DNA of 64,000 nucleotides, from assembly GCF_055900595.2 (NCBI RefSeq), contig NZ_CM148325.1; one strand, written 5' to 3'. The notes under the pieces are model-generated. The model had not been told where the DNA came from and searched no databases. It was given only the letters and a program-made list of their open reading frames with translations. Below are positions 13,864 to 55,855 of this stretch, in pieces (the first letter of the stretch is position 1; the number at the start of each line of letters is the position of its first letter). The translations under genes and the position numbers were made by a program.

Positions 13864-14817
<954 letters not shown>

Positions 14818-15019
14818 TTGCTGACAGATTTATCCGCTCCATCGCGGGCGGATAATCTCCCCTTTCCCAACTTTCTTCGTAACGCCTCGCAAATTTCTTG
14901 TCTTTAGCTGCAACGTAATAAAAAACTCCGGAAGCTGCTTTCCCGTTTCGTTTTTTGCCCCTCGCTTGTGCTGATGGCGTTTGCCAAAGTAGCGCCAACC
15001 AAATCAAGGAGCGAAACAA

Positions 15020-15460
15020 ATGGACAAGCAACGCGGTTTTACACTTATCGAACTGATGGTGGTTATTGGCATCATTGCCATTTTAAGCGCCATTGGTATT
15101 CCCGCTTATCAAAACTACCTGCGCAAAGCCGCACTCACCGACATGCTACAAACCTTTGTGCCTTACCGTACCGCCGTAGAGTTGTGCGCGCTGGAACATG
15201 GTGGATTAGATACCTGCGACGGTGGCAGCAATGGCATTCCCTCGCCTACCACCACCCGCTATGTTTCAGCCATGAGTGTGGCAAAGGGCGTGGTGTCGCT
15301 GACCGGGCAAGAAAGTCTCAATGGGCTAAGCGTCGTCATGACACCGGGTTGGGATAACGCAAACGGCGTCACCGGCTGGACGCGCAACTGCAATATTCAA
15401 AGTGACAGCGCATTGCAGCAAGCCTGCGAAGATGTCTTTCGCTTTGATGACGCCAACTAA
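15020..15460 (+). CDS. ppdD: type IV prepilin (prepilin peptidase-dependent protein D)
   Basis: ORF track 146 aa; N-terminus MDKQRGFTLIELMVVIGIIAIL is a classic type IV pilin leader with G/F cleavage site and E+5; AAGGA SD. Confidence 0.9.
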   Translation: MDKQRGFTLIELMVVIGIIAILSAIGIPAYQNYLRKAALTDMLQTFVPYRTAVELCALEHGGLDTCDGGSNGIPSPTTTRYVSAMSVAKGVVSLTGQESLNGLSVVMTPGWDNANGVTGWTRNCNIQSDSALQQACEDVFRFDDAN

Positions 15461-15469
15461 GGAGCGGCA

Positions 15470-16855
15470 ATGAATATTCCACAGCTCACCGCCCTGTGTC
15501 TGCGTTATCAGGGAGTCTTGCTGGATGCCAGCGAAGAGGTGGTTCATGTTGCGGTGGTCGATGCCCCTTCGCATGAGCTACTGGACGCATTGCATTTCGC
15601 TACCACCAAACGTATTGAGATCACCTGCTGGACGCGCCAACAAATGGAAGGTCACGCCAGTCGCACCCAACAGACATTGCCCGTAGCTATTCATGAGAAG
15701 CATCAGCCCAAAGCAGAGTTGCTGACTCGAACGTTACAATCTGCGCTGGAACAACGCGCGTCTGATATTCATATCGAACCAGCGGACAATGCCTACCGCA
15801 TCCGCTTGCGTATCGACGGTGTATTGCATCCTTTACCGGATGTTTTACCGGATGCCGGAGTCGCATTAACCGCCAGATTAAAAGTGCTGGGCAACCTGGA
15901 TATTGCGGAACATCGCCTGCCGCAGGACGGGCAATTCACTGTCGAACTGGCAGGAAACGCCGTCTCATTTCGTATTGCGACCTTACCATGCCAGGGTGGT
16001 GAAAAGGTGGTATTAAGGTTGTTACAGCAGGTGAGCCAGGCACTGGATATCAACACGCTGGGGATGCAGCCGTTACAACTGGCGGACTTTGCTCATGCCT
16101 TGCAACAACCACAGGGACTGGTGCTGGTAACTGGCCCTACAGGCAGCGGCAAAACGGTCACGCTTTATAGTGCCCTGCAAACGCTGAATACCGCTGACAT
16201 TAATATTTGTAGCGTCGAAGATCCGGTTGAGATCCCCATAGCCGGACTAAACCAGACGCAAATCCATCCGCGTGCCGGTCTTACCTTTCAGGGCGTTTTG
16301 CGTGCGTTATTGCGCCAGGACCCTGACGTCATCATGATCGGAGAGATCCGCGATGGCGAAACAGCAGAGATCGCTATTAAAGCGGCGCAAACCGGTCACC
16401 TGGTGTTGTCTACCCTACACACCAATTCCACCACTGAAACGCTGGTACGTTTACAGCAAATGGGAGTCGCCCGCTGGATGCTCTCATCGGCGCTTACGCT
16501 GGTAATAGCCCAGCGTCTGGTACGTAAACTTTGCCCACATTGTCGCCTGCAGCAAGGGGAGCCCATCCATATTCCAGACAATGTATGGCCGTCGCCGCTG
16601 CCCCGCTGGCAAGCACCCGGTTGTGTACATTGCTACCACGGTTTTTATGGTCGCACGGCCTTATTTGAAGTTCTGCCCATAACACCGTTCATACGTCAGC
16701 TTATTTCCGCTAATACCGACGTTGAATCGCTGGAAACGCACGCCCGACAGGCGGGTATGCGAACGCTTTTTGAAAACGGCTGCCTGGCCGTGGAGCAAGG
16801 CTTAACCACCTTTGAAGAGTTAATCCGCGTATTGGGAATGCCGCATGGCGAGTAA
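15470..16855 (+). CDS. hofB: type IV pilus / T2SS assembly ATPase (GspE/PilB family)
   Basis: ORF track 461 aa; Walker A GPTGSGKT, tetracysteine motif CPHC...C..C near C-terminus. Confidence 0.9.
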   Translation: MNIPQLTALCLRYQGVLLDASEEVVHVAVVDAPSHELLDALHFATTKRIEITCWTRQQMEGHASRTQQTLPVAIHEKHQPKAELLTRTLQSALEQRASDIHIEPADNAYRIRLRIDGVLHPLPDVLPDAGVALTARLKVLGNLDIAEHRLPQDGQFTVELAGNAVSFRIATLPCQGGEKVVLRLLQQVSQALDINTLGMQPLQLADFAHALQQPQGLVLVTGPTGSGKTVTLYSALQTLNTADINICSVEDPVEIPIAGLNQTQIHPRAGLTFQGVLRALLRQDPDVIMIGEIRDGETAEIAIKAAQTGHLVLSTLHTNSTTETLVRLQQMGVARWMLSSALTLVIAQRLVRKLCPHCRLQQGEPIHIPDNVWPSPLPRWQAPGCVHCYHGFYGRTALFEVLPITPFIRQLISANTDVESLETHARQAGMRTLFENGCLAVEQGLTTFEELIRVLGMPHGE

Positions 16856-18047
16856 GCAACTCTGGCGCTGGCGTGGCATAACCGGCGACGGCAATGCGCA
16901 AGATGGGATGCTATGGGCAGAGAGCCGTGCTTTGCTGCTCATAGCACTACAGCAACAGATGGTTACCCCACTTAGCCTGAAGCGAATCGCCATCAATTCT
17001 GCGCAGTGGCGAGGAGATAAAAGCGCGGAAGTCATTCATCAACTGGCGACGCTACTCAAAGCCGGGTTAACGCTTTCTGAAGGGCTGGCACTGCTGGCGG
17101 AACAGCATCCCAGTAAGCAATGGCAAGCGTTGCTGCAATCGCTGGCGCACGATCTCGAACAGGGCATTGCTTTTTCCAATGCCTTATTACCCTGGTCAGA
17201 GGTATTTCCGCCGCTCTATCAGGCAATGATCCGCACGGGGGAATTGACTGGTAAGTTAGATGAATGTTGCTTTGAACTTGCTCGTCAGCAAAAAGCCCAA
17301 CGTCAGTTAGCCGATAAAGTGAAATCAGCGTTGCGTTATCCCATCATCATTTTAGCGATGGCAATCATGGTGGTTGTGGCAATGCTGCATTTTGTACTGC
17401 CGGAGTTTGCTGCTATCTACAAGACCTTTAACACCCCATTACCGGCGCTAACGCAGGGGATCATGACGCTGGCAGACTTTAGTGGCGAATGGGGCTGGCT
17501 GCTGCTGTTGTTCGGCTTACTGCTGGCAATAGCCAATAAGTTGCTGATGCGCCGCCCGACCTGGCTTATCGCGCGGCAGAAATGGCTGTTACGCATCCCG
17601 ATTATGGGTTCACTGATGCGGGGACAAAAACTCACGCAGATCTTTACGATTCTGGCGCTGACTCAAAGTGCAGGCATTACTTTTTTACAGGGCGTAGAGA
17701 GCGTCAGAGAAACAATGCGCTGCCCGTACTGGGAGCAACTTCTGACACAAATCCAGCACGATATCAGTAACGGTCATCCTATCTGGCTGGCGCTAAAAAA
17801 TGCCGGTGAGTTTAGCCCGCTCTGTTTGCAATTAGTGAGAACAGGAGAGGCATCCGGTTCGCTGGATCTCATGTTAGACAACCTCGCCCGTCATCATCGG
17901 GATAACACCATGGCGCTGGCGGATAACCTTGCAGCCTTGCTCGAACCGGTGTTGCTGGTCATAACGGGAGGAATTATCGGTACGCTAGTGGTGGCAATGT
18001 ATTTGCCAATTTTCCATTTAGGCGATGCGATGAGTGGGATGGGATAA
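16845..18047 (+). CDS. hofC: type IV pilus inner-membrane platform protein (GspF/PilC family)
   Basis: ORF track 400 aa; overlaps hofB by 11 nt; two GspF-like repeats with TM segments. Confidence 0.9.
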   Translation: MASKQLWRWRGITGDGNAQDGMLWAESRALLLIALQQQMVTPLSLKRIAINSAQWRGDKSAEVIHQLATLLKAGLTLSEGLALLAEQHPSKQWQALLQSLAHDLEQGIAFSNALLPWSEVFPPLYQAMIRTGELTGKLDECCFELARQQKAQRQLADKVKSALRYPIIILAMAIMVVVAMLHFVLPEFAAIYKTFNTPLPALTQGIMTLADFSGEWGWLLLLFGLLLAIANKLLMRRPTWLIARQKWLLRIPIMGSLMRGQKLTQIFTILALTQSAGITFLQGVESVRETMRCPYWEQLLTQIQHDISNGHPIWLALKNAGEFSPLCLQLVRTGEASGSLDLMLDNLARHHRDNTMALADNLAALLEPVLLVITGGIIGTLVVAMYLPIFHLGDAMSGMG

Positions 18048-18048
18048 C

Positions 18049-18072
18049 GCTGGCGTGTTACTCCACGCCAGC
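18049..18072. terminator. hairpin between convergent hofC and guaC
   Basis: 9-bp stem GCTGGCGTG/CACGCCAGC with 6-nt loop directly after the hofC stop and 10 nt before the guaC stop; no strong U-tract. Confidence 0.45.
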
Positions 18073-18081
18073 ATTGGGAGA

Positions 18082-19125
18082 TTACAGATTGTTGAAGATG
18101 CGGTTTTCTTGTTCCTGTACACGGATAAACGTAGTGCGCTTGGTCAGCTCTTTCAGGCGTGAAGCCCCAACGTATGTACAAGCTGAACGCAGGCCGCCCA
18201 AAATATCACGCGCGGTATTTTCAACCGGGCCTCGCAGCGGCAGCTTAACGGTTTTACCTTCTGCTGCGCGATATTCCGCAACGCCGCCAACGTGACGTTT
18301 CATCGCAGACTCGGAGCTCATGCCGTAGAACAGCATAAATTTCTCGCCGTTCTCCTCAACGATGCGACCGCCGCTCTCTTCGTGGCCCGCCAGCATGCCG
18401 CCAAGCATGACGAAATCGGCACCGCCGCCAAAGGCTTTCGCGACATCGCCCGGCGTGGTGCAGCCACCGTCGCTGACGATCATTCCGCCCAGACCATGCG
18501 CAGCATCGGCACATTCGATCACCGCAGAAAGTTGCGGATAACCGACGCCTGTTTTGACGCGAGTTGTACAAACAGAACCGGGGCCAATGCCAACTTTAAC
18601 GATATCAGCACCGGAGAGGATAAGCTCCTCACACATTTCACCTGTCACGACGTTGCCAGCACAAATGGTTTTGGTCGGCCACGCTTCACGCGCTTTCGCA
18701 ACGAACTGCACGAAGTGTTCAGAATAACCATTCGCCACATCAATACAAACGAAGTTTAATGCCGGGTTCAGGTCGAGAATCTGTTTAGTTTTTTCGAAAT
18801 CCGCATCAGACGTACCGGTAGAAACCATCACATGTTTCAGCACATCAGCGGAAGAATTGTTGATAAACGCTTGCCACTCTTCGACAGAATAGTGTTTATG
18901 CACAGCAGTCAGAATATCAAAAGAAGCCAGCGCAGAGGCCATAGAAAATGTGCCTACGGTGTCCATATTTGCGGCAATAATCGGCACGCCGGACCAGCTC
19001 TGACCTGAATGTTTAAAGGTGAATTGACGTTCCAGTTCAACATCGGAACGGCTTTTAAGAGTGGAGCGTTTAGGGCGGATGAGAACGTCTTTAAAACCTA
19101 ACTTCAGATCTTCTTCAATACGCAT
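18082..19125 (-). CDS. guaC: GMP reductase
   Basis: ORF track 347 aa, [23 protein letters not shown]...; IMPDH/GMPR TIM-barrel family. Confidence 0.93.
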
Positions 19126-20927: not shown

Positions 20928-21125
20928 TCTGATGCGACGCTGGCCTGATAAGACGCGGGCAGCGTCGCATCAGGCATCGTGTGCAAATGTCGGATGCGGC
21001 GGGAACGCCTTATCCGACCTACAAGACCTTACATATCAACGTGTTAAAATTGTAGATGCTGATAAGACGCGCCAGCGTCGCATCGGGCATCTTGTGCAAA
21101 TGTTGGATGCGGCATAAACGCCTAT
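20928..21125. repeat. REP/BIME cluster (several REP-like palindromic units)
   Basis: Repeated units CTGATGCGACGCTGGC...GCCAGCGTCGCATCAGGC and GGATGCGGCG..AACGCCTTATCCGACCTAC between yacG and mutT; overlaps the last mutT codons. Confidence 0.75.
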
Positions 21126-21520
21126 CCGACATACACACGCTTAAGCTTCGCAAGTACCGGTTCATTGGCTGGCGGAAAATCATCGGCATTCAGACCGACC
21201 AGCGACATCCACTCACCGGGTTGCCCTTCTTTACCCCACGGCTCCCCTTCCCAGCTTTCGACCAGCCAGAACCACAGTGTTATATGCCTGTCCGGGAATT
21301 CATATTCCAGTTTTTCAAATAGCGAATAATGTTGTGGGGTAATCCCGACTTCTTCCTGAAGTTCACGCACCACCGCCTGTTCCGGCGTTTCGCCCATTTC
21401 AATTTTACCGCCAGGAAACTCCAGTTTATTCGCCATGTGCGCATCTGCGGCGCGACGGGTTATAAAGATTTCATTGTTCTCGTTGCGAATAATACCTACC
21501 GCAATTTGCAGCTTTTTCAT
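21122..21520 (-). CDS. mutT: 8-oxo-dGTP diphosphatase (Nudix hydrolase) MutT
   Basis: ORF track 132 aa; Nudix box GGKIEMGETPEQAVVRELQEEVG. Confidence 0.9.
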   Translation of the reverse strand: MKKLQIAVGIIRNENNEIFITRRAADAHMANKLEFPGGKIEMGETPEQAVVRELQEEVGITPQHYSLFEKLEYEFPDRHITLWFWLVESWEGEPWGKEGQPGEWMSLVGLNADDFPPANEPVLAKLKRVYVG

Positions 21521-21532
21521 TGTCTTAAACCT

Positions 21533-21562
21533 ATAAAAAAGGCGCAGAATCCTGCGCCTTTT
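21533..21562 (-). terminator. intrinsic terminator in the 59-nt secA-mutT gap
   Basis: On the minus strand: GGCGCAG - loop - CTGCGCC followed by TTTTTTATAGG (plus-strand A6 at 21535-21540). Confidence 0.65.
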
Positions 21563-21579
21563 ACTTCAACTGTTAGCTT

Positions 21580-24285
21580 TTATTGCAGGCGACCGTGGCA
21601 CTGCTTGTATTTTTTACCAGAACCGCACGGACAAGGATCATTACGTCCAACTTTGCGTTCACCGGTTTGTGCCGCCAGTGCAGCTGCGGCTGCAGAGTCG
21701 TCATCCTGATGGCTAAGCTGCTGCATTTGCGCTAAACGCTCGGCTTCCATACGACGCTGTTGTTCCAGCTCCTCAACCTCTTCAGGCATACGTACCTGGA
21801 CTTTGCTCAGCGTGCTGATGACTTCATATTTCAGCGACTCCAGCATCGCTGCAAACATGGAGAACGATTCACGTTTGTATTCCTGCTTCGGATCTTTCTG
21901 TGCATAGCCACGCAGGTGGATACCTTGACGCAGATAATCCATCGCCGCCAGGTGCTCTTTCCACAGGGAGTCAAGCGTTTGCAGCATGACGCCTTTCTCG
22001 AAGTGACGCATCATCTCAGCGCCAACCACTTCTTCTTTACGCTGATACACTTCGATGGACTGCGCCAGAATACGCTCACGCAGCGTCTCTTCATGCAGTT
22101 CTGGCTCTTTGTCCAGCCACTCGGCAATCGGCAAATCGAGGTCGAAATCGTTCTTCAGACGTTCCTGCAGCCCCGGAATATCCCACATTTCTTCCAGCGA
22201 CTGCGGCGGAATGTAGGCATCGATGGTCGCTTTGAACACATCTTCACGAATGCTGTTGATGGTATCGCTCACATCGCTGACATCCAGCAGTTCATTACGC
22301 TGGGAATAAATAGCGCGACGCTGATCGTTAGCCACGTCATCATATTCCAGCAGTTGCTTACGAATATCGAAGTTACGGCTTTCAACTTTACGCTGAGCGT
22401 TGGCAATCGCTTTTGTCACCCACGGGTGCTCGATGGCTTCGCCTGGTTTCATACCCAGTTTACGCATCATGCCGGAAACACGGTCAGAAGCAAAAATACG
22501 CATCAGCGCATCTTCCATCGACAGGTAGAAACGGGAAGAACCGGCATCCCCCTGGCGCCCAGAACGACCGCGTAACTGGTTATCGATACGACGAGATTCG
22601 TGACGTTCTGTACCGATGATATGCAGACCACCTGCAGCCAGTACCGCATCGTGACGCACCTGCCAGTCGGCTTTGATTTTTTCAATTTGCTCTGCGGTCG
22701 GATTTTCCAGCGCGGCAACTTCTGCCTGCCAGCTACCACCGAGCACAATATCTGTACCACGACCCGCCATGTTAGTCGCGATAGTCACCGCCGCCGGATA
22801 ACCCGCTTGTGCAACAATCGCTGCTTCGTTAGCGTGGAATTTGGCGTTCAGAACGTTGTGTTTGATACCGGCTTTGGTCAGTTCGTTTGACACCAGCTCA
22901 GATTTTTCGATGGAGATAGTACCCACCAGCACCGGCTGGCCTTTCGCAGTACGTTCTTTGATATCTTCAATGATCGCCTGAATTTTTTCCGCTTCAGTCA
23001 TGTAGACCAGGTCCGGCAGATCTTTACGAATCATTGGACGGTTGGTCGGAACAACGACGGTATCCAGCTTATAGATGGAGCTGAATTCGAAAGCTTCGGT
23101 ATCAGCAGTACCGGTCATCCCCGCCAGTTTTTCATACAGACGGAAGTAGTTCTGGAAGGTGATCGACGCCAGCGTCTGGTTTTCGTTCTGGATCTGTACA
23201 CCTTCTTTCGCTTCCACTGCCTGATGCAGGCCATCGGACCAACGACGTCCCTGCATGGTACGACCGGTGTGTTCGTCAACGATGATAACTTCACCATCTT
23301 TAACGATGTAGTCGACGTCTCGGGTAAACAGCGCATGAGCGCGCAGCGCCGCCGTTACGTGGTGCATCAGCATGATGTTGGCCGGAGAGTACAGAGACTC
23401 CCCTTCATCCATGATGCCTTCTTTCACCAGCAGTTCTTCAATCAGCACCAGACCACGTTCGGTCAGGTTCACCTGGCGAGATTTTTCGTCCACCGAGAAG
23501 TGGCCTTCGCCCTGGAAGGTTTCGGAGTCTTCTTTTTCCTGACGGATCAGGTGCGGAATAATTTTATTCACGCGTTTATACATTTCCGAGCTGTCTTCTG
23601 CCGGGCCGGAAATGATCAGCGGTGTACGCGCTTCATCGATCAGGATGGAGTCCACTTCGTCCACCAGCGCATAGTGCAGTTTACGCTGTACACGTTCTTC
23701 AGGGCTGAACGCCATGTTATCGCGCAGGTAGTCAAAGCCGTATTCGTTGTTCGTACCGTAAGTGATGTCAGCTGCGTAAGCTTCACGCTTCGCCGGTGCT
23801 GGCATACCCGGCAGGTTGATACCGACTGTCAGGCCGAGGAATTCAAACAGCGGACGGTTGTTTTCGGCGTCACGTTGCGCCAGGTAGTCGTTGACGGTAA
23901 CAACGTGTACGCCCTTACCGGTTAATGCGTTCAGGTAAGCAGGCAGCGTTGCGGTCAGGGTTTTACCTTCACCGGTACGCATTTCCGCGATGCAGCGTTC
24001 GTTAAGAACCATACCGCCGAGTAACTGAACGTCGAAGTGACGCATACCAAAGACGCGCTTACTTGCCTCACGCACTACAGCGAAAGCTTCTGGGATCAGA
24101 TTTTCCAGCACTTCGCCTTTTTCCAGACGTGCACGAAACTCTGCAGTTTTCCCTTTAAGTTCTTCGTCGGAGAGTTTTTCCATCTCCGGTTCCATGGCAT
24201 TGATAATGTTGACGACTTTGCGCATCCGGCGCAGGGTGCGATCGTTACGACTACCGAAAACTTTAGTTAATAATTTGATTAGCAT
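21580..24285 (-). CDS. secA: preprotein translocase ATPase SecA
   Basis: ORF track 901 aa; Walker [10 protein letters not shown]-terminal zinc finger [14 protein letters not shown]. Confidence 0.95.
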
Positions 24286-26107: not shown

Positions 26108-27259
26108 TTAATCAGCTTGCTTACGCAGGAATGCTGGGATATCCAGATAATCCGGCTCTTTCGCAGTTTGCGGCGCATTGTCATTCACGACTTTAGCAAC
26201 CGGCTTCTGCTCCTGGGTCAGCGGAGCCATCCCGTGCTGCTGGTAGCGATCCATCACTGGCTGCTGAACCTGCTTATTGGTCACCAGAGTGATTTCAGGA
26301 CGTTTGTCCATACCGATACCTGTCGCAACAACAGTTACGCGCAGCTCGTCATTCATATCCGGGTCAAGAGAAGTACCGATAACGACAGTTGCGTTGTCGG
26401 ATGCAAATGCACGGATGGTGTTACCTACCGTTTCGAACTCATCCAGACGCAGGTCGAAGCCCGCCGTGATGTTAACCAGCACGCCGCGCGCGCCAGACAG
26501 ATCGATATCTTCCAGCAGCGGAGAGGAGATAGCCATTTCAGCAGCTTCTTCCGCACGGTCTTCGCCGCTCGCCACACCAGAACCCATCATTGCGTAGCCC
26601 ATTTCAGACATTACGGTACGTACGTCTGCAAAGTCCACGTTCATCAGGCCTGGACGAGTAATCAGTTCAGCGATACCTTGCACAGCACCTTTCAGTACAT
26701 CGTTCGCTGCGCCAAATGCATCCAGCAGGGAGATACCGCGGCCCAAGACTTTCAGCAGTTTGTCGTTAGGGATAGTGATCAGAGAGTCCACATGCTTGGA
26801 CAGTTCAGTGATCCCCTGCTCAGCGAATGCCATACGCTTCTTGCCTTCAAAGTTGAAAGGCTTAGTCACGACAGCAACGGTCAGGATCCCCAAATCTTTT
26901 GCCACTTCAGCGACAACTGGTGCTGCACCAGTACCGGTACCACCACCCATACCCGCAGCAATAAAGACCATGTCTGCACCTTCCAGCGCCGCACGCAGTG
27001 CATCGCGATCCTCATCAGCCGCATTACGGCCAACTTCTGGATTTGCGCCAGCTCCCAGTCCTTTGGTGATACCGCTACCGATTTGAATCGTCTGTCCAAC
27101 CGCTGTTTTACGCAGCGCTTGTGCATCGGTATTTACCGCGAAGAATTCAACACCTTCAATGCGCTCGCGCACCATGTGTTCAACAGCATTACCGCCGCCG
27201 CCGCCGACGCCGATGACTTTAATCACCGCGTCATTGGTAAGTTCCATTGGTTCAAACAT
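26108..27259 (-). CDS. ftsZ: cell division GTPase FtsZ
   Basis: ORF track 383 aa; tubulin signature GGGTGTG. Confidence 0.96.
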
Positions 27260-27319
27260 AGTTTCTCTCCGATTTGTGCCTGTCGCCTGAGGCCGTAATT
27301 ATCGTCGACCTCATAAAAA

Positions 27320-28582
27320 TTAAAACTCTTTTCGCAGCCAACTATTGAGTCGCTTGATCCACGAGCCAACTGATGCTGTAACACGTTTTTCTACTTCAGC
27401 TTCACCGTTAAGATGTGACTCTTTCCCATAGTGAAGCAATCCCACCGCCGTCGAATAATACGGCTCCTGAGCATAATCCGTTAAACCGGTAATGTTCAGC
27501 GGCGCGCCGATACGCACTTGCGTATGAAACACGCGCTGAGCACAGGCTGCAAGACCTTCGATCTGCGCTGCGCCACCAGTTAAAACAATGCCTGCCGCCA
27601 GGTGATGTTTAACCCCTTGTTGGCGAAGCTTTTCCTGCAACTGCAATATCTCTTCGTTGACCAGGTTGAGCAGCTCGGTATAGCGCGGCTCGATCACCTC
27701 TGCCAGGGTCTGACGTTGCAGACTCCGCGGTGGACGACCGCCTACGCTCGGCACTTCCACGCTCTCATCTTTTCCAACGATGGAACCCAGCGCACAACCG
27801 TGGCGAACTTTAATCGCTTCGGCGTCGCTTGGCGGCGTGCCAAAGGCGTAAGCGATATCACTGGTCACGACATTGCCAGCATAAGGAATTACCTTAGTGT
27901 GGCGCAATGCCCCACCGGTATAAACGGCGATATCCATTGTACCACCACCGATATCGACGACGCAGACACCCAGTTCACGTTCATCTTCCGTCAATACCGA
28001 ATAACTTGATGCCAGTCCGGCAAATATCAGTTGGTCAACTTTCAGCCCACAACGTTCAACCGCTTTGACGATGTTTTTCGCCATATCGTTGTGACATGTG
28101 ATCAGGTGCACTTTTGCCTGCATCCGCACGCCCGAAAGTCCTACCGGATTCTTGATCCCTTCCTGATAGTCAATCGCATACTCTTGCGGGATCACATGCA
28201 GCACACGATGCTCATCGCGCACACGCACTGATTTCGCGGTATGGACGACGTTTTCCACATCTTCTTGCGTCACTTCTTCTTCAGAAATAGGCACCATACC
28301 AATTTCATTCTGGCAGCTGATGTGCTTACCAGAAAGCGCCAGATATACCGAAGAGATCTGACAATCTGCCATCAATTCTGCCTGGTCAATGGCGCGTTGT
28401 ACGCACTTGACCACGGATTCGAGGTCGTTCACCCCGCCTTTATCCATACCACGCGACGGGCAGCTGCCCACGCCAATGATATTGACCATACCGTCGGGCA
28501 GAACTTCCCCTACTAAAGCGGCAACCTTCGCGGTACCAATCTCCAGTCCTACTACCAGTTTTCTGTCCGTCGCCTTGATCAT
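27320..28582 (-). CDS. ftsA: cell division protein FtsA (actin-like ATPase)
   Basis: ORF track 420 aa. Confidence 0.95.
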
Positions 28583-48194: not shown

Positions 48195-48852
48195 ACTTAA
48201 CTCCACTGTCACACTTAACTCCCTTTCCCTTATTGGAATGCAGAGAAATAATCCTCGAGAATATGATTTATCATGCATATAAAATAAGAAAAAGGAAAAT
48301 GAGAAAAATTAGGAAAACATAAAGATACGGGTTCTTATAAAAACAGAACCCATTGCCGAGTAAAGAGTCATTTACCGCAGCATAATAATCCATAATGTTT
48401 TTGTTGCGAAAACAATCTAATCATAACTACCGCGAATACTCAATCATCCACAAAATGGATTAAATGTGCTTTTTTAATAATTAATTTATATGTTTAATGC
48501 ATTAATTCTTAACATTAATCGAACAATAATATTCACCAAATGAATATCAAAAAATTAGCAAAACATATAATTCAATACAAATCATCAAGATAGGTTTTGT
48601 AACGCGTGCATTTTATCCCCCTTTTCCTCGTTGATTAGATGCAAAAATTTATTCTGAAATATGTCAACCGATGAAAAGCGTCGGTGGTTAAGCAGAAATT
48701 AATATCGCTTGTTTTAACCACCGCAGCACAATTAGCTAATTTGACGAATGCAGAACTCACTCTGGCGGAACGTTTTTGTTGCGTCAGGGTTGACATCCGT
48801 TTTTGTATCCAGTAACTCTAAAAGCATATCGTATTCATCTGGAGCTGATTTA

Positions 48853-48939
48853 ATGACTCACATCGTTCGCTTTATCGGTCTACTACTACTAAACGCATCT
48901 TCTTTGCGCGGTAGACGAGTGAGCGGCATTCAGCATTAA
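48853..48939 (+). CDS. leuL: leu operon leader peptide (28 aa, four consecutive Leu codons)
   Basis: GGAG SD then ATG 48853; [28 protein letters not shown]; Leu codons CUA x4 at 48880-48891. Confidence 0.88.
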
Positions 48940-48954
48940 GCCAGCACGCAGTCA

Positions 48955-48990
48955 AACAAAAAACCCGCGCCATTGCGCGGGTTTTTTTAT
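48955..48990 (+). terminator. leu attenuator (intrinsic terminator)
   Basis: A6-CCCGCGCC-loop-GCGCGGG-T7 at 48958-48988, between leuL and leuA. Confidence 0.88.
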
Positions 48991-53713: not shown

Positions 53714-53757
53714 TTTGTAAACCGTCCGGCACTCAATCGCCAAAAAGAAAAAAGCCA

Positions 53758-53973
53758 GCAGATAATCACTGCTGGCGTGGCGATTAACACCAATACTCAG
53801 TCACACATGATGTCCGCAAATCAGTAGTCAGAATGACTCCCCTCCCACTGCATCAGCTCTTCAAGCATGGTTAATCGTTGTGGGACGCTTAACCAACGCA
53901 ACCAGCACAACGTCGCTGTCGCGGTAAAATAGTGCTGATAAAACTGACGCATGGGGCACCTCCTTGCTTCATC
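53758..53973 (-). ncRNA. sgrS: dual-function small RNA SgrS (glucose-phosphate stress; base-pairs with ptsG mRNA)
   Basis: Minus strand begins GATGAAGCAAGGAGGTGCCCCATG..., contains the GAGUAUUGGUGUUAAUCG seed region and ends in hairpin GCCAGCAG..CUGCUGGC + U6 (plus 53758-53789); divergent from sgrR. Confidence 0.85.
53821..53952 (-). CDS. sgrT: SgrT small protein (43 aa) encoded within SgrS
   Basis: AGGAGG SD then ATG 53950-53952; MRQFYQHYFTATATLCWLRWLSVPQRLTMLEELMQWEGSHSDY; nested in larger track ORF 53821..54120. Confidence 0.8.
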   Translation of the reverse strand: MRQFYQHYFTATATLCWLRWLSVPQRLTMLEELMQWEGSHSDY

Positions 53974-55727: not shown

Positions 55728-55855
55728 CGCCGTTCTCAACGGGGTGCCACGCTGCCGCGTGCGCTGAGAAAATACCCGTCGAACCTGATCCGGATAACGC
55801 CGGCGAAGGGATTTGAGGCTCCTTCTCAAGTCCTTTGCCACTCTTCTTTGAGGTG
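55728..55855 (+). promoter_or_regulatory. TPP riboswitch (THI-box) in thiBPQ leader
   Basis: GGGGTGCC...CTGAGA...ACCCGT.GAACCTGATCCGGATAACGCCGGCGAAGGGA conserved THI-element seen at 55741-55811, directly upstream of thiB. Confidence 0.88.

Follow-up and report, generated by a model that had tools for sequence, protein, structure and literature searches.

Three adjacent genes on the + strand of the window (the whole 64,000-nt stretch of DNA analysed here) raise the question of whether they encode an intact type IV pilus module, and if so to which machine it belongs and what the pilus is used for. A sequence-only reading had described them as ppdD-hofB-hofC, with tight spacing and an 11-nt hofB/hofC overlap. 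The ORF listing and the raw sequence placed ppdD at 15020-15460 (146 aa, ATG to TAA), hofB at 15470-16855 (461 aa), and hofC at 16845-18047 (400 aa), and the coordinates of that description were exact. The 9-nt gap between ppdD and hofB (15461-15469) contains the Shine-Dalgarno sequence AAGGAG. hofB and hofC overlap at 16845-16855 on the + strand (ATGGCGAGTAA), and an identical overlap is annotated in K-12, in Sakai, and in a genome with 100% identity. The sole Shine-Dalgarno-like element 5′ of hofC is a weak GGGAA, which suggests translational coupling of hofC to hofB through the overlap. In our estimate, there is a probability of about 93% that these genes form the ppdD-hofB-hofC operon of E. 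coli, part of the enterobacterial type IVa pilus/DNA-uptake machine.

PpdD carries the type IV leader claimed for it (MDKQRG/FTLIELMVV...; PF07963 N_methyl, E=2.5e-10, plus TIGR02532), and it scored 269.3 bits against the PpdD equivalog NF007862 (cut-off 138), with residues 1-145 of 146 covered. Cleavage is predicted before F7. This would remove the 6-residue leader MDKQRG, encoded at 15020-15037 on the + strand, and leave a mature pilin of 140 aa; both lengths are values of the T4a class. The short basic leader ending in G, with F1 and E5 in the hydrophobic N-terminal helix, forms a class III signal peptide. PDB entries 6GV9 and 6GMS are PpdD and depart from the window protein only at mature residue 115 (T versus A). 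Residues 7-146 of the window protein are one residue apart from 6GV9, the EHEC pilin whose filament structure has been solved, and the full protein is 100% identical to that of K-12 and 99.3% to that of Sakai. Cysteines for both disulfides (C50-C60 and C118-C130) were present, as were the other key residues E5, K30, D35, E53, H54, E92, E131, D132, R135, and D137; 10.1101/2021.04.14.439816 defines the C-terminal disulfide loop, the additional C50-C60 disulfide typical of enterobacterial pilins, H54, and the residues of the Ca site. Leader removal, N-methylation, and filament assembly have been reported for the K-12-identical protein or the EHEC protein that differs by one residue (PMC3330819; 6GV9). 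PpdD is a type IVa major prepilin.

HofB scored 816.9 bits against its own family model NF007755 (cut-off 617) and matched PF00437 with E=2.6e-145 (484.2 versus a cut-off of 24.9). Motif inspection revealed a Walker A sequence GPTGSGKT at aa 222-229 (nt 16133-16156, + strand), an Asp box EDPVE at aa 250-254, a Walker B sequence DPDVIMIGEIRD at aa 284-295, a His box TGHLVLSTLHT at aa 308-318, and a tetracysteine Zn motif, CPHC + CVHC, at aa 355-358 and 385-388. Residues 79-454 align with Geobacter PilB (5TSG/5ZFR; E about 1e-104), and the motifs coincide. This places HofB in the GspE/PilB family, as an assembly (extension) ATPase of the hexameric type. It scored below the cut-off of the canonical PilB model TIGR02538 (484.6 versus 675.65) because its N-terminus is short and retains only part of the MshEN-like region: the match pairs residues 68-454 with profile positions 168-561 of 564, the MshEN domain is partial (profile positions 24-86 of 90), and the N-terminus is about 100-125 aa shorter than in solved PilB chains. 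HofB is a shorter enterobacterial subtype that would function in PilB fashion.

HofC scored 660.7 bits against NF007861 (cut-off 401) and matched PF00482 in two stretches (E=1.7e-57). Its residues 64-395 align with residues 84-415 of M. xanthus PilC (3JC8; E=9e-45), and hydropathy analysis revealed three hydrophobic segments at about 159-192, 212-236, and 355-395. HofC is the platform protein of the GspF/PilC family, polytopic and located in the inner membrane. The GspE-family ATPase and GspF-family platform protein of the sequence-only reading were therefore both borne out.

PGAP names hofB "gspE", and its RefSeq product is "type II secretion system protein GspE". The families are homologous; in the T2SS trio GspG-GspE-GspF the ATPase and platform folds are shared, and the pilin also has a class III signal peptide. 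According to PMC2649431 and PMC3330819, which cite the finding, the Klebsiella Pul T2SS can assemble PpdD. That HofB and HofC are type II components for protein secretion, and not for a pilus, is nevertheless extremely improbable. Both proteins scored below the cut-offs of the corresponding T2SS equivalogs (HofB 454.6 versus 630.25 for GspE, TIGR02533; HofC 270 versus 424 for GspF, TIGR02120), and their closest solved relatives are PilB and PilC. The first co-transcribed gene encodes a true type IVa pilin whose filament has been solved; with its 140 aa and two disulfides, PpdD is of this class and not a T2SS pseudopilin. Unlike in T2SS loci, no further gsp genes adjoin the operon, and gspC, D, and G-N are absent from its neighbourhood.

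The trio of pilin, PilB-type ATPase, and PilC-type platform is the same as in Haemophilus influenzae pilABCD and in Pseudomonas aeruginosa pilA + pilBCD, and the Haemophilus cluster is likewise under a CRP-S site and Sxy (PMC1635313). In contrast to pilABCD and pilBCD, no pilD follows hofC; convergent guaC is found there instead, in nearly all Enterobacterales loci examined. HofB also differs from PilB in its shorter N-terminus, which keeps only part of the MshEN-like region.

To the eye of the earlier reader, the genes had shown no frameshift or truncation. Relative to K-12 MG1655 and O157:H7 Sakai, we found no frameshift, internal stop, or length change, and intactness was borne out by gene lengths and motifs, by alignments with the solved structures of PilB, PilC, and the pilin, and by comparison with 23 orthologues. 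K-12 ppdD-hofB-hofC (b0108-b0106) and EHEC O157:H7 hcpA-hcpB-hcpC (ECs_0112-0110) share with the window the gene order, the gene lengths (441, 1386, and 1203 nt), the 9-nt gap and 11-nt overlap, the flanking genes nadC and guaC, the 202-nt upstream spacer, and the CRP-S core. The window allele is not that of the laboratory strain: HofB is 97.4% identical to the K-12 protein (12 substitutions) and HofC 96.0% (16 substitutions), and with O157:H7 included the values are 97.4% (12 substitutions) for HofB and 96.0-96.3% (15-16 substitutions) for HofC. The substitutions are confined to columns that vary among 23 other taxa, and no invariant column is altered. This natural-isolate allele is confirmed to be as intact as the alleles that have been studied.

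Of 5426 complete E. coli genomes, 5423 contained the 3.3-kb segment at ≥80% coverage, and ppdD-hofB-hofC is core genome of E. coli. Several E. coli chromosomes carry the segment with 100% DNA identity, and in them the genes are annotated as ppdD, gspE (hofB), and hofC; only 80 of 5424 matching genomes showed ≥99% identity. The gene order ampD-nadC-ppdD-hofB-hofC-guaC is kept as far as Yersinia, Serratia, and Brenneria, and in the Erwinia locus the nadC-side synteny is kept and guaC has no match. Near-full-length protein matches reach Yersinia, Serratia, and Erwinia. These are real conserved genes rather than chance ORFs.

The ORFs were full length in 10 comparison loci, out to Enterobacter and Leclercia, with dN/dS of about 0.03-0.16; the operon is under purifying selection. 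The non-synonymous rate of HofB and HofC is 3-10 times above that of neighbouring housekeeping genes. This faster evolution, together with the absence of expression under laboratory conditions (PMC1635313, PMC3330819), is what would be expected of a relic, with ORFs that are open by chance, are becoming pseudogenes, and have no function in the lineage. Given the selection data, such a relic is very unlikely. Three ORFs totalling 3 kb are intact and dN/dS is far below 1; every catalytic motif is kept, columns invariant in other taxa are unaltered in the window, the proteins match nearly full length in distant genera, the locus is nearly universal in the species, and the upstream regulatory site is conserved. 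Selective maintenance of the module across Enterobacterales points to a function that is real, though seldom induced.

The description of the module as cryptic or poorly expressed, with a role that is partly open, agrees with the literature. Neither the ppdD transcript nor the pilin can be detected when Sxy is missing, and the transcript rises 90-fold with Sxy and cAMP-CRP (PMC1635313). CRP binds a ppdD promoter fragment, and induction requires Sxy, CRP, and cAMP in K-12 (PMC1635313). Because the primers used for the 90-fold induction lie inside hofB (window 15792-15901; PMC1635313), hofB is part of the induced transcript. CRP-S promoters show Class I-like activation with direct CRP-Sxy contact (PMC6728893).

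Sxy-dependent CRP (CRP-S) sites were taken as 22-bp CRP sites upstream of the first gene with C6 and/or G17 and never T6. A candidate is present at 14873-14894 on the + strand, centred about 136 nt 5′ of the ppdD ATG; its core TTCGT-N6-TCGCA (14876-14891, TTCGTAACGCCTCGCA) has the diagnostic C6 and G17 and is identical in the window and K-12. This is the only match to TGCGA-N6-TCGCA with two mismatches in the nadC-ppdD spacer. A scan of the window at two mismatches gave 36 matches versus 46.6 expected, a count not above chance and hence uninformative, and cross-genus positional conservation was therefore used as support. Of 28 Enterobacterales loci, 21 have their best CRP-S-like match between -130 and -146, and this holds for 6 of the 9 distant genera; the candidate also aligns across loci as a conserved block. 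Primer matching, with one primer showing mismatches to the non-K-12 window allele, placed it inside the CRP-bound ppdD fragment of PMC1635313. The placement fits the published dependence on Sxy and cAMP-CRP, and we propose 14873-14894 as a candidate CRP-S site.

A scan of 14700-18300 for sigma-70 consensus promoters found none (3.0 were expected in shuffled sequences), a result taken only as consistent with activator dependence. Two readings of the core promoter were considered. The first has a weak promoter at 14908-14936 on the + strand, with -35 CTGCAA (14908-14913), a 17-bp spacer, and -10 GAAGCT (14931-14936), in which TG.AA (14909-14913) and GAA (14931-14933) show little or no variation among 16 Enterobacteriaceae; the candidate start site would be at about 14943, with the CRP-S centre near -60 in a Class I arrangement. 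In the second, the block TG-n-CA-n-A-n-T at 14982-14990 on the + strand (TGCCAAAGT), whose T, G, C, A, A, and T are invariant in 16 of 16 aligned Enterobacteriaceae, is a candidate extended -10 element with a start site at about 14997. The conserved blocks fit both readings. The ppdD Shine-Dalgarno sequence AAGGAG (15006-15011, + strand) lies 8 nt 5′ of the ATG, and its AGGAG is invariant across genera.

Between the candidate CRP-S site and this ribosome-binding site, the non-coding blocks TG.AA (14909-13), GAA (14931-33), TTT/CTCG (14954-64), and TG.CA.A.T (14982-90) are invariant and common to at least 16 Enterobacteriaceae lineages from about 8 named genera. They might be more than a weak core promoter: a second regulator might bind there, or they might act as another promoter, silencing the operon and responding to the natural inducing signal. 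We consider this speculative and rather unlikely. The blocks are concrete targets for dissecting the promoter. Pairing of a leader RNA element, GUUUCGUUUUUUG, with the Shine-Dalgarno region (start near 14943) was rejected as unsupported: the leader from about 14943 folded with an overall z-score of -0.6, RNAalifold gave only -0.59 kcal/mol, and the helix was paired in 60% of cells versus 58.7% in shuffled sequences (register approximate).

A predicted hairpin lies on each side of the operon. The first, a stable one, directly follows the nadC stop (14817), at 14826-14858 on the + strand, with a fold of -16.0 kcal/mol (z = -4.2); none of 200 shuffles folded equally well, and this hairpin probably shields ppdD from nadC read-through. 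The second, at 18049-18072, has a 9-bp stem and a 6-nt loop (-18.1 kcal/mol, z = -3.6; 0 of 200 shuffles) and sits in the 34 nt that separate the convergent genes hofC and guaC. This hairpin has no U-tract and is likely a 3′-end or bidirectional terminator element. An Rfam search of the operon region gave no match.

Secretin/alignment genes, minor pilins, prepilin peptidase, and retraction ATPase were not found within about 15 kb of the operon in either direction. The machine needs more than these three genes, and the word "module" in the sequence-only reading was apt, since secretin/alignment genes, minor pilins, and peptidase are encoded elsewhere in the genome. The type IVa pilus/DNA-uptake machine is spread over at least three separate chromosomal loci; among 5426 complete E. 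coli genomes, hofMNOPQ was found in 5425, and ppdAB-ygdB-ppdC likewise in 5425. Pili have been assembled in E. coli from hofBC, hofMNOPQ, ppdAB-ygdB-ppdC, and gspO (10.1101/856302). Sxy induction yields processed PpdD and DNA uptake that depends on hofQ (PMC3330819). When the EHEC ppdD-hofBC cluster is expressed in K-12, PpdD appears on the surface (PMC2649431), and in the same paper EHEC is cited as making PpdD pili on minimal casein medium.

From this literature on near-identical alleles, we infer the following mechanism for the window allele. The operon, lacking a sigma-70 consensus promoter, would be silent until cAMP-CRP and its co-activator Sxy (TfoX) bind the CRP-S site and recruit RNA polymerase in a Class I-like manner, turning it on. 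A single transcript would carry all three genes, with hofB translated from a strong ribosome-binding site of its own and hofC by coupling at the 11-nt overlap. PrePpdD would enter the inner membrane, where GspO or PppA, encoded elsewhere, would cut the 6-residue leader and methylate F1. The HofB ATPase, docked on the HofC platform, would pull pilins from the membrane and polymerise them, with the minor pilins PpdA-PpdB-YgdB-PpdC priming the filament, and this filament would cross the HofMNOP alignment complex and then the HofQ secretin. It would serve DNA uptake, for nutrient or transformation, and in EHEC the filament would also be adhesive, as the "haemorrhagic coli pilus".

The same machine could instead have as its main natural role an adhesive, bundle-forming colonisation pilus, the EHEC "haemorrhagic coli pilus", and not DNA uptake. 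The window pilin is one residue from the EHEC pilin, which forms long filaments (6GV9), and PMC2920817 and PMC2649431 report or cite adherence, the induction of cytokines, and defective kidney colonisation by UPEC hofQ mutants. We regard adhesion as the main role as possible but the less probable alternative: PMC1635313 places the operon in the Sxy/CRP-S competence regulon, the site position is kept across Enterobacterales, and hofQ is needed for Sxy-induced DNA uptake (PMC3330819). The pilin, moreover, is unusually conserved across genera, which would not be expected of an immune-exposed adhesin; PpdD identity is 92% in Citrobacter and Pseudocitrobacter versus 66-77% for HofB. The two roles are compatible and not mutually exclusive. 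Published work already covers the operon itself, its control by Sxy and cAMP-CRP, the structures of pilin and filament, and reconstituted assembly, and nothing here is new; ppdD-hofB-hofC is an ordinary, well-known core-genome feature, intact and normally silent.

At the nucleotide level, ppdD differs from the K-12 gene at 1 nt in 441, whereas its neighbours are 2-4.5% different. Synonymous constraint on ppdD was considered and rejected, since its genus-level dS equals that of neighbouring genes; the near-identity is therefore attributed to a within-species recombination mosaic.

The ORF table and raw sequence placed the major pilin gene ppdD at 15020-15460 (+ strand, 146 aa), the assembly ATPase gene hofB at 15470-16855 (+ strand, 461 aa), and the inner-membrane platform gene hofC at 16845-18047 (+ strand, 400 aa). 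A 9-nt gap containing the ribosome-binding site AAGGAG separates ppdD from hofB, and the 3' end of hofB shares 11 nt (ATGGCGAGTAA) with the start of hofC. The sequence-only reading had described these genes as an intact cryptic type IV pilus module, and its coordinates and description were exact. The annotated neighbourhood (aroP, ampE, ampD, nadC, ppdD, hofB, hofC, guaC, yacM, coaE, zapD, yacG, mutT, secA) corresponds to minute 2.5 of the E. coli map, in reversed orientation relative to K-12. RNA folding revealed stable hairpins flanking the operon on both sides, at 14826-14858, 3' of nadC (-16 kcal/mol, z = -4.2), and at 18049-18072, in the hofC-guaC spacer (-18.1 kcal/mol, z = -3.6).

All three proteins exceeded the cut-offs of their equivalog profiles: PpdD scored 269 bits on NF007862 (cut-off 138), HofB 817 bits on NF007755 (617), and HofC 661 bits on NF007861 (401). 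Domain searches assigned PF07963 and a weak Pilin match to PpdD, PF00437 (E=2.6e-145) to HofB, and two copies of the PF00482 repeat to HofC, which has three hydrophobic segments. Gene lengths were the same as in K-12 MG1655 and O157:H7 Sakai, and comparison with these strains revealed no internal stops in ppdD, hofB, or hofC. Relative to K-12, PpdD was 100% identical (no substitutions, one synonymous nucleotide change), HofB 97.4% (12 substitutions), and HofC 96.0% (16 substitutions). Residues 7-146 of PpdD differed at one position from PDB 6GV9 (EHEC pilus filament) and 6GMS; the match begins at residue 7, and the cleavage site is therefore G6|F7. Among the key residues listed for the EHEC pilin (10.1101/2021.04.14.439816), E5, disulfides C50-C60 and C118-C130, H54, and the calcium-site residues were all kept. 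HofB retained the Walker A (222-229) and Walker B (284-295) motifs, the Asp and His boxes, and two CxxC pairs. When 23 orthologues were aligned with the window proteins, substitutions specific to the window all fell at columns variable between genera, and the window proteins did not deviate at any invariant column. In PDB comparisons, HofB residues 79-454 aligned with Geobacter, Myxococcus, and Thermus PilB/PilF (E ~1e-93 to 1e-105), slightly more strongly than with Vibrio GspE, and HofC residues 64-395 aligned with M. xanthus PilC; these alignments also favour intactness. These findings confirm the earlier observation and support its interpretation; the operon itself is already known.

The operon is the very same as K-12 ppdD-hofB-hofC and EHEC hcpABC, in another allele. 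Unlike Haemophilus pilABCD and Pseudomonas pilA/pilBCD, it has no peptidase gene next to it. The N-terminus of HofB is ~100-125 aa shorter than that of solved PilB chains, and because of this the protein scored below the canonical PilB equivalog cut-off (484.6 vs 675.65). It also failed the GspE equivalog (454.6 vs 630.25). RefSeq/PGAP nevertheless names the hofB product "gspE: type II secretion system protein GspE". This is a family-level label and no evidence for a secretion role; because the GspE cut-off was failed and the gene lies within a type IV pilus operon, the name is misleading.

At a coverage of at least 80%, 5423 of the 5426 complete E. coli genomes carry the 3.3-kb segment (14800-18100), and several chromosomes, e.g., that of strain Z0117EC0005, match it at 100% identity. 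Only 80 of 5424 matching complete genomes were at least 99% identical to it, indicating that the window carries a minority hofB-hofC allele. Plasmid-classed records held 3 of the 5437 matching places. Over its 441 nt, ppdD had a single difference from K-12 (dS 0.010), whereas hofB, hofC, nadC, and guaC were 2-4.5% divergent (dS 0.07-0.15), with 3-4.5% for hofB and hofC alone. Since dS of ppdD at the genus level was similar to that of its neighbours, the near-identity of ppdD is explained by recombination mosaicism, with what looks like a breakpoint close to the ppdD/hofB junction.

A distribution scan with HofB as query (one genome per species) revealed syntenic ampD-nadC-ppdD-hofB-hofC-guaC loci in E. 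albertii, Citrobacter, Enterobacter, Kluyvera, Leclercia, Pseudocitrobacter, Brenneria, Serratia, and Yersinia. Gene order is likewise kept in Erwinia, where guaC had no match. In 10 comparison loci, out to Enterobacter and Leclercia, ORFs were full-length with dN/dS of 0.03-0.16, a pattern of purifying selection. This constraint is more relaxed for hofB and hofC than for ppdD and the neighbouring housekeeping genes. Type IV pilins exposed at the surface would usually be expected to vary more than their assembly proteins. In comparison loci L007-L020 (Citrobacter, Enterobacter, Pseudocitrobacter, and others), identity was 78-92% for PpdD, 64-78% for HofB, and 55-71% for HofC (92%, 66%, and 57% in Pseudocitrobacter); by these alignments the pilin is better conserved between genera than the motor and platform. 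Luna Rico et al. 2019 (cited in 10.1101/2021.04.14.439816) had already published the high conservation of PpdD. These results mark the module as a core-genome feature that has been maintained, rather than as a relic. In Escherichia sp. ESNIH1 (locus L021, 4001-5212) and Pseudescherichia vulneris (L022, 4001-5209), the HofB match begins at query residue 57-58, right after ppdD; HofB in these two appears to lack its first ~56 residues, a partial MshEN-like region.

No sigma-70 consensus promoter was found in 14700-18300 (shuffles averaged 3.0). The 202-nt nadC-ppdD spacer contains a sole candidate CRP-S-like site, TTCGTAACGCCTCGCA at 14876-14891, with the diagnostic C6 and G17. Because the CRP-S motif count alone was at chance level, positional conservation was tested. 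The best CRP-S-like match lay 130-146 nt 5' of the ppdD ATG in 21 of the 28 Enterobacterales loci compared. These include 6 of 9 distant genera, in which the remaining spacer looks unrelated by eye; for the distant genera, a rough binomial estimate gives a chance probability of ~3e-5. Within Enterobacteriaceae, the site is a conserved alignment block. Cameron & Redfield 2006 (PMC1635313) showed that a ppdD promoter fragment binds CRP in vitro and that induction reaches 90-fold and requires Sxy, CRP, and cAMP. When their primers were matched to the window (ppdDR with several mismatches against this non-K-12 allele), the site fell inside the CRP-binding fragment. The induction primers mapped inside hofB (15792-15901), which demonstrates that hofB is co-transcribed. 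Activation of the Class I type, with CRP and Sxy in direct contact, is backed by PMC6728893.

Five short blocks (14909-14990), located 3' of the CRP-S site and 5' of the ppdD ribosome-binding site, showed no or almost no variation across 16 Enterobacteriaceae: TG.AA (14909-13), GAA (14931-33), TTT (14954-56), CTCG (14961-64), and TG.CA.A.T (14982-90). They would be compatible with a weak -35/-10 pair (17-bp spacer, start at ~14943, CRP-S near -60) or with an extended -10 element (start at ~14997, CRP-S near -113); a search for published ppdD start-site data found none. A possible 13-bp helix within 14945-15016 pairs U-rich GUUUCGUUUUUUG with the ppdD Shine-Dalgarno region. Sequestration of the ribosome-binding site by this helix was rejected, as it was neither conserved nor covarying in other genera.

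In the proposed mechanism, Sxy and cAMP-CRP would turn on a single transcript, and a prepilin peptidase encoded elsewhere would process PrePpdD. HofC-docked HofB would then assemble PpdD into a filament, with PpdA-PpdB-YgdB-PpdC priming it, and the filament would pass through HofMNOP and then the HofQ secretin. Published work established these steps for near-identical alleles, and we infer them for this one. Sxy induction yields processed PpdD and hofQ-dependent DNA uptake (PMC3330819), and exactly this gene set assembles pili in E. coli (10.1101/856302). According to the summary in PMC2649431, EHEC forms PpdD pili and its ppdD-hofBC cluster works in K-12. Neither hofMNOPQ nor ppdAB-ygdB-ppdC was found in the ~15 kb flanking the operon on each side; 5425 of the 5426 complete E. 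coli genomes carry each of these loci.

Rfam matches at gathering score were all to known families, none inside the operon: tp2 (9555-9668), naRNA4 (20942-21019), STnc40 (21535-21604), PssrA (27251-27340), Leu operon leader (48839-48988), SgrS (53747-53973), and TPP riboswitch (55730-55829). The yacG-mutT spacer varies in length from strain to strain, and mutT (21122-21520, - strand) encodes 132 aa (399 nt) as in O157 Sakai, compared with 129 aa (390 nt) in K-12.
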